32,924 nucleotides of DNA from Lentisphaerota bacterium (GTDB taxonomy: Bacteria; Verrucomicrobiota; Kiritimatiellia; UBA8416; JAFGTH01). The notes below the pieces were generated by a model. The model worked only from the letters and a program-made list of their open reading frames with translations. It was not told the DNA's origin and made no database searches. Of this stretch, positions 12,213 through 18,234 are shown one piece after another. The stretch's first letter is position 1, and each line of letters begins with the position of its first letter. The stretch spans positions 1 to 32,924 of the forward strand of contig JAFGTH010000202.1 in the NCBI GenBank assembly GCA_016934225.1. The letters are read 5' to 3'. Both the position numbers and the translations under genes were made by a program.

Positions 12213-12229
12213 CGGCAATTTCGTTGCCG
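12213..12229 (+). promoter_or_regulatory. candidate sigma-54 promoter / palindromic box CGGCAA-N5-TTGCCG upstream of the NarL-type regulator
   Basis: The sequence is cGGCAAtttcgTTGCcg, with GG at 12214-15, 10 nt, then GC at 12226-27, against TGGCAC-N5-TTGCW. It lies 65 nt upstream of ATG 12293. It is also a perfect 6-bp inverted repeat, so orientation and nature (promoter versus operator) are ambiguous. Confidence 0.35.
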
Positions 12230-12292
12230 AATTCGCCGCCTCATGATAAGCTTCAAGCAAATGGGTTCGGAAAACGCCACAAAGCAAAAGCA

Positions 12293-13006
12293 ATGAAAAC
12301 AAACAGTCATTCATTAAACAATCGAACGACATCGGCAAGCGCCGATTCCCCCGGTAGCGCGCCGGCCCGCATACTCATAGTGGACGATCATCCGATCGTG
12401 CGCCGAGCCGTCCATCATATCATTAAGAAAGAGCCTGATTTGGAATTGTCATGGGAAGCGTCCGATGCAAATGAGGCTATGCATATTCTCGAAACGGAAA
12501 AACCGGATCTAGCCATAATTGATATAAGTCTCAAAGGCCGAAGCGGACTGGATCTCATCAAAGATATGCGCGCTCAGGGACTCAAATGCCCTGTTCTTGT
12601 CCTCTCAATGCATGAAGACACTACATATGCGGAACGATCACTTCGTGCAGGCGCACAAGGTTACGTTATGAAAAACGAACCTCCCCAGATAATAATAGAT
12701 GCGTTACGCAAAATTCGTACTGGAGATATCTTTGTATGTGACAGGATCGCTACGCGCCTCCTTTCCCGCTTCGTGGGACACAAACAAGACACCCAAACGA
12801 CCGACCTATTGAATGTTCTCAGTGATAGAGAATTCGATGTTTTCCAACATATCGGACAAGGGCAAAGCACTCGCGAGATAGCCGCCGAATTGAATCTTAG
12901 CGTTAGTACAATCGAAACGCATAAGTCCAATATTAAGCAAAAACTCAATATTCAGACAGCATCCGCGCTCGCTAAATCTGCTGCAGAATGGCTACTCGGC
13001 AAGTAA
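12293..13006 (+). CDS. NarL/FixJ-family response regulator (REC + LuxR-type HTH)
   Basis: REC features are RILIVDDHP, phospho-acceptor PDLAIIDISL, VLVLSMH and GYVMK. The LuxR HTH reads LSDREFDVFQHIGQGQSTREIAAELNLSVSTIETHKSNIKQKL. The frame is open from TTG 12224, but the first ATG (12293) lies downstream of the candidate promoter and is preferred. Confidence 0.9.
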   Translation: MKTNSHSLNNRTTSASADSPGSAPARILIVDDHPIVRRAVHHIIKKEPDLELSWEASDANEAMHILETEKPDLAIIDISLKGRSGLDLIKDMRAQGLKCPVLVLSMHEDTTYAERSLRAGAQGYVMKNEPPQIIIDALRKIRTGDIFVCDRIATRLLSRFVGHKQDTQTTDLLNVLSDREFDVFQHIGQGQSTREIAAELNLSVSTIETHKSNIKQKLNIQTASALAKSAAEWLLGK

Positions 13007-13227: not shown

Positions 13228-13653
13228 GTGAATAAAGCTATTATATTTGTGATTGAGGATGATCCTTTGGCGCAGGCAGGTATTCGTGCGTTGCTCGATG
13301 ATACCCACGATCTTGCTTTCACTAAAGCCCCCGCTGAATCCGATATTGAACAGAGCCTCTGTGACGCCAAACCTGATCTTGTTCTGTTCGGTTTGCATAT
13401 CACCAAGACACGAAATCAGTTTCTTCTCCGTAAAATTGCGCTGCAATTTCGAGTGCTGGTTTTTTCTGATGAAGATGAAACATTGCATGCCGAAGACACG
13501 CTTCGCGCTGGAGCGCGCGGATATATTATGAAAGAAGAATCTCCGGAGATTCTTCTTAAAGCAATCAGGACAACTCTTGCCGGCAATCTTCATCTCAGTG
13601 ATAAAATGAAATCGCATTTTTTCCAACGCATTGCCGCAAACGGATCCGCATAA
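13228..13653 (+). CDS. stand-alone NarL-like receiver domain lacking the phospho-acceptor Asp (pseudo-receiver)
   Basis: The gene has a GTG start and encodes 141 aa. IIFVIEDDP (acidic pocket), VLVFSDED (Ser at the T87 position) and GYIMKEE (conserved Lys) are present. The phospho-acceptor position reads PDLVLFGLHI, compared with PDLAIIDISL in the neighbouring regulator, so Asp is replaced by Gly. There is no output domain. The stop TAA (13651-53) overlaps the ATG of the next gene. Confidence 0.75.
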   Translation: MNKAIIFVIEDDPLAQAGIRALLDDTHDLAFTKAPAESDIEQSLCDAKPDLVLFGLHITKTRNQFLLRKIALQFRVLVFSDEDETLHAEDTLRAGARGYIMKEESPEILLKAIRTTLAGNLHLSDKMKSHFFQRIAANGSA

Positions 13654-15647
13654 TGCAAAAAACAAAACAAAATAAATCCGGTCACCAAAAAGCGCATCAG
13701 GTAAATGCCTGTCACGACGATCTGTATGCCATTACTGCACGTTATGAAGCCGTCTTGGCCGCAATTCCGGATATAGTCATGGAGACGGATCAAAACAAGG
13801 TCTATGTATGGGCTAACGCAGCGGGCATTGAATTTTTTGGAGATGATGTCATAGGCAAGGAGCCAGCCTATTTCTTTGTCGGCGAACAAGACACATATAA
13901 TTTAGTGGACCCCCTGTTTCAAGGAAATGAGAAGGTTGTCTATGTCGAGAGCTGGCAAAGAAGAAAGGACGGACAAGAACGACTTCTCGCATGGTGGTGC
14001 CGTGTCATGAAAAATGCCAACGGCAATGTCACCGGAGTGCTCTCAACAGCCCGCGATATTACCGATCAATACCGCGCACAAATCAAACTTCGGGAATCCG
14101 AAGACCGAATCCGTAAGATCATGGAGGTGGCTCCCGATGCGTTTTATGTAACGGATATTAATGGAACGATTCTGGACGGAAATGCCGCAGCCGAGAAAAT
14201 AGTCGGATATAAACGCGAAGCTCTTATCGGCAAAAACATATTTGAAGCGAATTTGTTGAGGCCGGAGGATACGACCAGGATCGAGGCCCTCATGGCCCAG
14301 GAGGCCTCCGGTAAACCCACCGGGCCGGACATTTTTGTGATTCACCGAGGCGATGGCGCCATGATCACGGTGGAGTTGCGTGGAACACCTACAATTATCA
14401 ACAACGAGGAAGTGGTGGTATGTTCAATGCGCGATATTTCCGAACAAAAAAGGTTGGAACAGGATCTGTTGGATTCGAATTCGCAACTAAATGAAGCACT
14501 GAACAATTTAAGAGAGACGCAAGACCAGATGCTTCATAATGCGCGCCTTAGCGCCTTGGGACAAATGGCAGGGGGAATTGCACACGATTTTAATAATATC
14601 CTTATGCCTATCGTGGGTCTAAGCAATTATCTTTCATCTTATTCGCATGCTTTAGACAACAAGGAGGAGGCGCTTTCCATGCTGAAACAGATCGAGAGAG
14701 CAGCCAACGATGCAAGAAATATTGTTCACAATCTCAGATTGATTTACAAACCGACTGCTATAGAACCGTTCGAGCGAATAGATGCCGATGCGCTTGTGAC
14801 CAGCGCACTGGACATGACAAGCCCAAAGTGGAAAGAAGAGCGTCAGGCCATAGGCAAACCCATTAACACAAAACTGGTTGCCACGGCCAATCGCACGCTC
14901 ATGGGCAATGAAACAGCGCTACGGCAAGCACTTGTCAATCTCATACTCAATGCTATAGATGCTATGCCGGAATCCGGCACGTTAACCGTATCATCGCGTT
15001 CGGATAATGAACATGTTCTATTGGAAATAACAGATACCGGCATCGGAATGACGGAAGACTGCAAGATAAAATGTCTCGAACCTTTCTTCTCGGATAAAGG
15101 GGTCAAGGGCACAGGAATCGGTCTGGCAATGGTAAATATCGTTGTCAAACAGCACAATGGAACCATTGAAATTGACTCCGAATCCGGAAAAGGCACGACG
15201 GTTCGAATCCGGCTTCCTGCGGATAGTAAAAACAAACTTCCAGAGGCTAAGCCACATTTGCGCCAGTCGAAACCGGCGTCTTCGCGTCTACGCATTCTGG
15301 TTATAGACGACGAATATCTCTCTTGTAGCCTGCTCAGTCGGCTTCTCAGAATAGATTCTCATAGCGTTGAAACAGCCTCATCCGGCAAAGAAGGCATCGA
15401 GAAATTCAAAGATGACGATTTCCATTTGGTTTTCACGGACCGATCAATGCCGGATATGCACGGCGACGATGTGGCAGGAATTATCAAAAAGCTCCGCCCC
15501 GATGTTCCAATAATCATGCTTACAGGATTTGGCGACATCATGAACGAGAAGGGCGAATTACCCGTGTCTGTTGACAAGGTAGCGTGCAAGCCTGTTACCT
15601 TACAGGATTTAAGAGGCTTAATTGCTGAAACTATAAAATCGTTATAG
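13653..15647 (+). CDS. cytoplasmic hybrid sensor histidine kinase (PAS-PAS-HisKA-HATPase-REC)
   Basis: There is no TM segment. Two PAS-like blocks end in ARDITDQ and MRDISEQKRLE. The H-box is GIAHDFNNILMPIVG, the N-box LVNLILNAIDAMPESG, G1 DTGIGM and G2 GTGIGLAMV. The C-terminal REC shows LRILVIDDE, LVFTDRSMPDMHG, IIMLTG and CKP. Confidence 0.92.
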   Translation: MQKTKQNKSGHQKAHQVNACHDDLYAITARYEAVLAAIPDIVMETDQNKVYVWANAAGIEFFGDDVIGKEPAYFFVGEQDTYNLVDPLFQGNEKVVYVESWQRRKDGQERLLAWWCRVMKNANGNVTGVLSTARDITDQYRAQIKLRESEDRIRKIMEVAPDAFYVTDINGTILDGNAAAEKIVGYKREALIGKNIFEANLLRPEDTTRIEALMAQEASGKPTGPDIFVIHRGDGAMITVELRGTPTIINNEEVVVCSMRDISEQKRLEQDLLDSNSQLNEALNNLRETQDQMLHNARLSALGQMAGGIAHDFNNILMPIVGLSNYLSSYSHALDNKEEALSMLKQIERAANDARNIVHNLRLIYKPTAIEPFERIDADALVTSALDMTSPKWKEERQAIGKPINTKLVATANRTLMGNETALRQALVNLILNAIDAMPESGTLTVSSRSDNEHVLLEITDTGIGMTEDCKIKCLEPFFSDKGVKGTGIGLAMVNIVVKQHNGTIEIDSESGKGTTVRIRLPADSKNKLPEAKPHLRQSKPASSRLRILVIDDEYLSCSLLSRLLRIDSHSVETASSGKEGIEKFKDDDFHLVFTDRSMPDMHGDDVAGIIKKLRPDVPIIMLTGFGDIMNEKGELPVSVDKVACKPVTLQDLRGLIAETIKSL

Positions 15648-17742: not shown

Positions 17743-18234
17743 ATTGTAACATCTGCTCGTTCTCCCGAACAGAAAGCTATTCTTTATATTTTGCCCGATT
17801 GGCTGTAAAACAGCTTTCATTCATCCGGCAGTTCAGAAGATTTTCGATCTGATTCCAGGTTTTCTCGACTGTCGCATCGCGCCAGTCCCAAAGACGGACA
17901 TCGTTTTATCCCCCGCCTGACACGAAATCGGAAAATGTTCAGGTTTCAGTGATTTGACATGTAGCACATTCTGGAATATCTTTGTGTCTTCAACGGAAAT
18001 TGGGATAGTAAACACGCTCGACTATTAATATTCCTTGGCAATGTGTACTGTAGGATTGTAACACACATTGCCGAAAATAGATCGGGTGAAATCTGAAAAG
18101 AACGGACGGATTGAATGAGCCCGCAAAACCGACGGATTTGGCAACAGGGTTTGGAGAAACAAAATTATATTTCTGAAGATCATGTTTCCCTGCCAAAAAT
18201 TTTTTGACCCGCATGTTTAATTGGAGAAAAAATA

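Follow-up and report, generated by a model that had tools for sequence, protein, structure and literature searches.

A conserved stand-alone NarL-type pseudo-receiver without an acceptor aspartate, encoded in one-base overlap with a PAS hybrid histidine kinase in a Lentisphaerota bacterium

What can a receiver domain do when it has neither an aspartate to accept a phosphoryl group nor an output domain to act through? The question is raised by a contig of 32,924 nucleotides (JAFGTH010000202.1, positions 1 to 32,924 of the forward strand, hereafter the window) from the Lentisphaerota bacterium assembly GCA_016934225.1, in which a small protein of this kind, here called pREC, is encoded immediately ahead of a hybrid histidine kinase, HK1 (Table 1). 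Our analysis establishes that pREC is a genuine and conserved stand-alone pseudo-receiver that lacks both the acceptor Asp and an output domain. Concerning its role, and by analogy with known receiver-like kinase regulators, we see about an even chance that pREC serves as a phosphorylation-independent protein partner of the kinase with which it would be co-translated.

The frame of pREC is intact and its product matches the Pfam profile PF00072 (Response_reg) with 42 bits, against a cut-off of 30.2, over profile positions 1-111 of 111. The Pfam profile search found no second domain; particularly, there is no match to the GerE domain (PF00196), and the protein stops at residue 141, after helix α6. 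In NCBIfam, pREC matches NarL and NarP best, in their N-terminal halves. A preliminary description of this DNA, made from the sequence alone, had proposed that pREC is colinear with the receiver (REC) domain of the NarL-type regulator encoded upstream and that it carries no output domain, and both proposals hold. The two receivers align colinearly with 29% identity (BLASTP, E 3e-19), and a tblastn search of the window with the GerE domains of the closest relatives found no remnant of a helix-turn-helix (HTH), the sole match being the HTH of the upstream regulator itself. This search also rules out the idea that the kinase genes were inserted into a regulator gene, leaving a hidden HTH remnant behind.

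The identity of the residue at the acceptor position is clear. NarL (PDB 1a04) is the top PDB sequence match, and HMMER sets G55 of pREC opposite NarL Asp59, pairing PDLVLFGLHIT with PDLILLDLNMP. The same column holds Asp in 9/9 and then in 26/26 full-length canonical relatives, as judged from two MAFFT alignments, and no profile alignment placed an acidic residue at this position of pREC; the substitution of Gly for Asp that had been noted earlier is thus confirmed. The Gly codon, GGT, lies one transition away from GAT, an Asp codon.

The surrounding pocket is partly kept and partly rebuilt. The preliminary description had listed an acidic EDD motif, the Ser of VFS and the Lys of IMK as retained. 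S80, K102 and the acidic metal-binding pair are indeed kept, but the pair consists of E10-D11 only; D12 replaces a near-invariant His of the family (DDHP), and the orthologue P0023, described below, reads E-D-N, with Asn in this place. Y99, the aromatic residue at K-3, is kept as well, in line with a 2015 survey in which the Y/T-coupling residues were mostly retained in aspartate-less receivers (ALRs) (PMC4395418). Other positions have diverged in both proteins, counting from the acceptor (D) and from the conserved Ser/Thr (T): at D+4, where the family has Pro or Lys, both have Thr; at D+8, Gly in 168/187 family members, both have Asn; at T+1, where the family has Met, pREC has Asp and P0023 has Ser; and at T+2, a His in the family, both have Glu. 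Ser80 of pREC is therefore followed by the acidic D81-E82 instead of Met-His.

Pseudo-receivers are described as tending to lose Pro at D+4, Gly at D+8 and the small residue at T+1, while their β3α3 and β4α4 loops become more negative (PMC12632262). The changes shared by pREC and P0023 at D+4, D+8 and T+1 fit these trends, which argues that the active site was remodelled long ago and not altered by one mutation. In addition, the pocket Lys is Asn in P0023, pointing to a relaxed constraint on catalysis. With Gly in the acceptor site, and with the β3α3 and β4α4 loops, which shape phosphoryl chemistry, remodelled, pREC would not be phosphorylatable.

The conservation of these features can be followed in one further protein. 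An exhaustive phmmer (HMMER) search of 1.84 billion representative proteins found a single pREC orthologue, P0023, of 142 amino acids, which is 61% identical to pREC in an end-to-end alignment (E 6e-43). It reads KPDLVLFGLPIT, with Gly at the acceptor position; it keeps the Ser, lacks an output domain and matches PF00072 with 42 bits. P0023 is encoded on a single contig of 576 bp (L038) from an unrelated ENA metagenome assembly (ERZ23498357). The two proteins share identical residues in the core strands, in the remodelled loops and at the α5-α6 junction, and the C-terminal tails are alike (RIADNGSL in pREC, RIAANGSA in P0023). By the Nei-Gojobori method, pN is 0.249 (dN ~0.30) against a pS of 0.80, the latter being saturated. 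As pN lies far below pS, the protein appears to be under strong purifying selection. An independent orthologue with the same Gly, together with purifying selection, excludes a strain-specific lesion, an assembly or sequencing error and a decaying relic, and the conservation of Gly in orthologues, which the preliminary description had left to be checked, holds for the only orthologue found.

The wiring of pREC to the kinase gene is conserved along with the protein. As had been noticed earlier, the TAA of pREC overlaps the ATG of HK1; the overlap consists of one base, 13653. The contig of P0023 shows the same arrangement, a stop and a start codon with one base in common (TGATG, L038 472-476) and GGGAG ahead of them, and the following open reading frame (ORF) starts with a basic tail and then LHASTTRY, where HK1 has LYAITARY at a near-equal distance. 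Retention of the one-base overlap in P0023 suggests that co-expression of pREC and HK1 has been selected. In the window, a Shine-Dalgarno (SD)-like GGA stands 8 nt before the HK1 start, within the N-G-S codons of pREC. These conserved codons hold the SD-like site of the kinase in both sequences: AACGGATCC at 13636-13652 of the window and AACGGGAGC at 457-473 of L038. With GGA and GGGAG placed inside tail codons, conservation of the tail may partly reflect constraint at the RNA level.

Further members of this lineage were sought along several lines. A word-indexed search of 5.8 billion clusters brought up no second stand-alone protein like pREC: besides pREC itself, it returned full-length REC+GerE proteins with at most 41% identity, all bearing Asp, and when seeded with P0023 it returned the pREC-P0023 pair only. 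Of 423 stretches matched in a pattern scan of JGI metagenomes, 0 were related to pREC, and a scan of GTDB representative genomes yielded only unrelated receivers with 27-34% identity to it. Among 40 genomes of the same order, the best match reached 39% and all matches lay in frames of 230-280 amino acids; those that were checked turned out to be full-length regulators, among them orthologues of the upstream one, and the best of these fit the upstream regulator better than pREC. Starting from the kinase, a PAS-region search and a metagenome scan based on HK1 brought up no further pREC genes but promiscuous PAS or HDFNN kinases only (at most 50% and at most 35% identity, respectively), and a NarL-type receiver was found near HK1-like kinases at 0/80 loci.

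The fold and the relatives of pREC place it within the NarL/LuxR branch. An AF2 model, with pLDDT 93.2 and pTM 0.86 from a 28-sequence alignment, predicts the canonical order from β1-α1 to β5-α5 plus a sixth helix, α6, at residues 125-138. Foldseek compared this model with solved structures and ranked ChrA, LiaR, 3cz5, NarL, RcsB, DesR and VraR as the best PDB matches; these are receivers of the NarL/LuxR family, and the probability was 1.00 to many solved receivers. Hence pREC shows the features of a NarL-subtype receiver in its sequence, its predicted fold and its α6 linker helix, whereas two features of NarL/FixJ regulators, the GerE HTH and a phosphorylatable Asp, are missing. As it lacks both, we do not count it among the response regulators but class it as a stand-alone pseudo-receiver of NarL descent.

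Loss of the acceptor is seen elsewhere in this family. Of the 187 nearest relatives, 169 have Asp in the acceptor column, 9 have Gly, 8 have Glu and 1 has His. The Gly-bearing relatives are P0031, P0040, P0061, P0071, P0098, P0111, P0130, P0145 and P0167, and those with Glu are P0048, P0052, P0092, P0108, P0121, P0123, P0143 and P0163; most of the Gly- or Glu-bearing relatives checked with Pfam keep the GerE domain. As Gly and Glu carriers fall into several separate groups of the tree, Asp-less NarL-type atypical regulators seem to have arisen repeatedly in environmental bacteria.

In a maximum-likelihood tree of 72 receiver regions, whose branches are long, pREC and P0023 form a clade (support 100/99) that is sister to P0145 (99/89), and both lie among further Gly-bearing proteins, in a set with weak support. 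P0145 is a Gly-bearing REC+GerE protein of 244 amino acids that has the motif VFSDGDET and lacks Gly at D+8; the contigs of P0145 and P0167 span only 1-1.7 kb and are uninformative on gene context. The sister position of a Gly-bearing protein with an output domain suggests, without more weight than such a tree allows, that the change from Asp to Gly preceded the loss of the HTH. Most likely, then, pREC derives from the NarL/LuxR branch through an atypical regulator that already had Gly in place of Asp and whose GerE domain was lost afterwards. The upstream regulator stands apart from pREC and pairs with its own orthologue from G025 (99/91), a related genome from another family of the order; this tree and the 29% identity argue against pREC being a recent tandem duplicate of its neighbour.

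How does pREC compare with the non-canonical receivers already described? ALRs make up ~4% of receiver domains, or roughly two per bacterial genome, and Gly, which accounts for ~11% of their substitutions, alone among the common classes lacked a characterised example in 2015 (PMC4395418); pseudo-receivers in a broader sense have been estimated at 6-13% of receiver domains (PMC12632262). Like these proteins, pREC matches PF00072 without the acceptor Asp, keeps an acidic residue, the Ser/Thr and Y99, and has lost the usual residues at D+4 (Pro), D+8 (Gly) and T+1 (small), while its β4α4 loop carries additional negative charge. Most of the atypical regulators described are orphans (PMC4395418; PMC12632262), whereas pREC is stand-alone, has no effector domain and belongs to a putative kinase operon. 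The family closest in sequence and predicted fold, that of NarL (1a04), DesR, VraR and LiaR, shares with pREC the α6 linker helix and the LRAGARGYxxK block; unlike canonical NarL/FixJ proteins, pREC lacks the GerE HTH, the acceptor Asp, the His after the acidic pair, the Gly at D+8 and the Met-His after Ser.

Among single-domain proteins, the nearest functional parallels are FixT (Sinorhizobium meliloti, Caulobacter crescentus) and Osp (Rhodobacter sphaeroides). Osp binds to the hybrid kinase CckA at its transmitter and, at an equimolar ratio, blocks the kinase activity, itself remaining unphosphorylated, and FixT acts likewise on FixL (PMC9430884; PMC7078487). Like them, pREC is a single receiver fold without an output domain in which phosphorylation is not expected, and the kinase next to it is a PAS-containing hybrid HisKA kinase whose H-box is of the HDFNN type; by this analogy, pREC may bind the transmitter of that kinase at about 1:1. 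The details of the pocket are reversed, however: FixT and Osp keep the acceptor Asp and have lost the acidic pair (Osp also the Lys), whereas pREC has lost the Asp and kept the acidic pair and the Lys. Moreover, FixT and Osp have transcripts of their own, as feedback targets of the pathway regulator, in contrast to the translational coupling of pREC to the kinase. pREC is also NarL-type with an α6 helix. Given that all its nearest relatives are NarL-type, a specific homology to FixT or Osp is unlikely.

Two other systems bear on the question. ShkA is a cytosolic hybrid histidine kinase controlled by a receiver fold that cannot be phosphorylated (PMC7010744), the relation proposed here for HK1 and pREC; the REC1 of ShkA is an internal domain of the kinase and a c-di-GMP sensor, while pREC is a separate polypeptide. 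CmrT, from the cmrRST operon of Clostridioides difficile, is a pseudo-receiver clustered with a kinase and a response regulator of the ordinary kind, and poses the same question as pREC, namely whether the kinase or the regulator is the target (PMC12632262). CmrT is OmpR-type and keeps its DNA-binding domain, unlike pREC, which is NarL-type and has none.

On this basis, the proposal that pREC is a partner of HK1 can be set out as follows. pREC would be transcribed together with HK1 and translationally coupled to it, would dock on the dimerization and catalytic (DHp/CA) transmitter of the kinase through the usual docking face of receivers, and would tune autophosphorylation or phosphotransfer in the manner of FixT and Osp, the direction of the effect being inferred. 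The fixed stoichiometry with the kinase that the preliminary description had supposed, and its decoy or allosteric action by docking on the DHp or on the REC of the kinase itself, are likewise inferences. The paralogous kinase HK2 might be a second target, its kinase core being 43% identical to that of HK1. There would also be room for such an accessory protein in the pathway. No Hpt domain (PF01627) was found in the metagenome-assembled genome (MAG) to which the window belongs (G000, with the window as C20), which is 74% complete; the MAG has 36 receiver-domain matches and several hybrid kinases, and its matches to PF10090 (ChpT-like) are weak only, the one in the window falling inside HK1. 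As no Hpt was found, the route from hybrid kinase to NarL-type regulator is open.

Several observations weigh against this proposal. An overlap of stop and start codons is the default layout of operons of response regulators and histidine kinases, and is by itself no proof of a physical complex. The β5α5 loop, a normal contact of receivers with kinases, is the least conserved part between the two orthologues (1/4 identical), and just 6/12 residues of helix α1 are identical; with a family of two members, moreover, surface conservation cannot be mapped. The nearest full-length relatives of pREC pair with HisKA_3 kinases, whereas HK1 is a HisKA kinase of the HDFNN type, so that an inherited docking face for HK1 is not guaranteed. 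When the α1 specificity positions of pREC were compared by eye with those of the other four receivers in the cluster, none matched convincingly, and we draw no evidence from this comparison.

The genes around pREC and HK1 are listed in Table 1. The H-box of HK1 (AHDFNN) and its receiver motifs are visible in the translation. A promoter and terminator scan of the cluster showed, where it matters, no excess of sites over shuffled sequence. The ~490 bp at 17743-18234, which separate the CheY-like gene from a NifX-like gene, hold no convincing ORF on the + strand, and a promoter-like match, TTGACA-17-TATCTT, lies within them at 17954-17982.

In G025, the orthologue of the upstream regulator (52% identity) is followed by a REC-HisKA-HATPase-REC kinase and then by a 131-residue receiver. 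This layout suggests that the order of regulator, hybrid kinase and CheY-like receiver is older, and that pREC was added in the lineage of the window. In other families of the order, the kinases most like HK1 and HK2 are likewise of the REC-HisKA-HATPase-REC type, with an N-terminal Asp-bearing receiver as input. Homology of pREC to the N-terminal receivers of these syntenic kinases was considered and rejected: those receivers carry Asp, are not NarL-type and give no BLAST match to pREC. Elsewhere in the order, a 140-residue stand-alone NarL-type receiver with its Asp present (LALVDLSL) is encoded at L037 5402-5824 (G003:C38), just downstream of an 855-residue hybrid kinase, which suggests an independent loss of the HTH with the acceptor kept.

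Table 1. Features of the pREC-HK1 cluster (window coordinates) and related kinase genes in other genomes of the order
Feature	Position	Strand	Basis or remark
pREC, stand-alone Asp-less receiver, 141 aa	13228..13653	+	ORF, GTG start
E10-D11-D12 codons	13255..13263	+	E10-D11 = kept acidic metal-binding pair; family columns D/D/H
Gly55 codon GGT, phospho-acceptor position	13390..13392	+	alignment to NarL D59
Ser80 codon TCT, kept Ser/Thr position (VFS)	13465..13467	+	alignment
Lys102 codon AAA, conserved pocket Lys (IMK)	13531..13533	+	alignment; Asn in orthologue P0023
TAATG, pREC stop and HK1 start	13651..13655	+	TAA 13651-13653, ATG 13653-13655, one base in common
HK1, soluble PAS-PAS-HisKA-HATPase_c-REC hybrid histidine kinase, 664 aa	13653..15647	+	Pfam; proposed partner
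HK2, paralogous hybrid histidine kinase, 556 aa	15672..17342	+	24 nt after HK1
CheY-like single-domain receiver with Asp, 125 aa	17365..17742	+	22 nt after HK2; closes putative operon
Canonical NarL/FixJ-type regulator, REC with Asp + GerE HTH	12224..13006	+	221 bp upstream of pREC; possible alternative partner
REC-HisKA-HATPase-REC kinases	L030 4784-6442 (G025:C483); L031 4731-6311 (G029:C7); L033 7026-8684 (G033:C27)		

The same data must be weighed against other accounts of pREC. Its partner could be a NarL-type regulator, the one encoded upstream or another, with HTH-less heterodimers re-tuning or damping DNA binding or cooperative phosphorylation, so that pREC would act as a dominant-negative protein or a co-regulator. 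Regulators of the NarL/FixJ family dimerise through receiver surfaces, heterodimers of pseudo-receiver and receiver have been proposed for CmrT/CmrR (PMC12632262), and pREC, being NarL-type in sequence and predicted fold, keeps α6 and the receiver dimer surfaces. In this regard, the segments α4-β5 (LRAGARGY) and α5-α6 (AGNLxLSD) are the best conserved, both between the orthologues and family-wide, and a related genome shows synteny of the regulator gene with hybrid kinase genes. LRAGARGY is common to all family members, however, and its conservation may be purely structural; the gap of 221 bp to the regulator gene stands against the overlap with HK1, and with 29% identity and a position in a separate clade pREC is not a close paralogue of its neighbour. 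The contig of P0023 is too short to reveal whether a regulator gene lies nearby. Overall, we find a regulator partner unlikely, though it is the foremost competitor of the kinase-partner proposal. Still less probable, in our judgement, is a role of pREC as a signal-input module that binds a small molecule, such as a cyclic dinucleotide, in the emptied pocket or at α6, or receives some other modification, and passes its state to HK1. The precedent is the pseudo-receiver of ShkA, which controls its hybrid kinase by binding c-di-GMP (PMC7010744), and helix α6 of VpsT offers an analogy for ligand binding; the remodelled pocket loops, GL-IT--RN and the acidic S-[DS]-E-D-E, are common to both orthologues, and α6 carries F-[FL]-[QR]-R at 131-134. 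Yet pREC matched no known ligand motif, the xxQR of α6 is also present in the canonical Asp-bearing proteins P0002 and P0003 and hence marks no specialisation, and K102 is not kept in the orthologue.

The most sceptical account takes the ORF as an artefact or a relic: a decaying regulator fragment, a one-base error of the MAG (GAT to GGT) or an N-terminal domain of HK1 split off by a frameshift. The MAG is indeed fragmented, with 279 contigs at its 74% completeness, G55 is a single transition away from Asp, and related kinases in the order carry a fused N-terminal REC. Against this, P0023 comes from a separate metagenome and shows the same Gly, nearly the same length and separate frames with a one-base overlap; the frame of pREC is intact with full domain coverage, pN is well under pS, no GerE remnant was found in the window, and the fused N-terminal receivers bear Asp, are not NarL-type and have no BLAST match to pREC. 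We therefore regard an artefact or relic as very improbable, and return to the proposal of pREC as a partner of HK1 in considering what the locus means.

Reviews describe pseudo-receiver mechanisms as largely unknown, and most of the studied examples are orphan transcription factors. pREC combines three unusual traits, the absence of an output domain, the Gly substitution and the wiring to a specific hybrid kinase, and its stop/start overlap with the kinase gene is conserved across ~40% sequence divergence. The cluster is thus a compact setting in which to study the effect of a dead receiver on a phosphorelay, with the kinase and the neighbouring regulator as the competing partners. No concept is overturned, because control of kinases by non-phosphorylated receiver-like proteins (FixT, Osp, ShkA REC1) is already established. 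A bolder reading, which we advance tentatively and hold less likely than not, is that pREC and P0023 represent a very rare, Gly-type, output-less lineage of NarL descent that acts as a dedicated co-translated subunit of a PAS hybrid kinase at about 1:1, and that would supply the first functional example of the Gly class. If pREC is a dedicated kinase subunit, it would correspond to the internal pseudo-receiver of ShkA but act in trans, or it would be a 'hard-wired' version of Osp and FixT.

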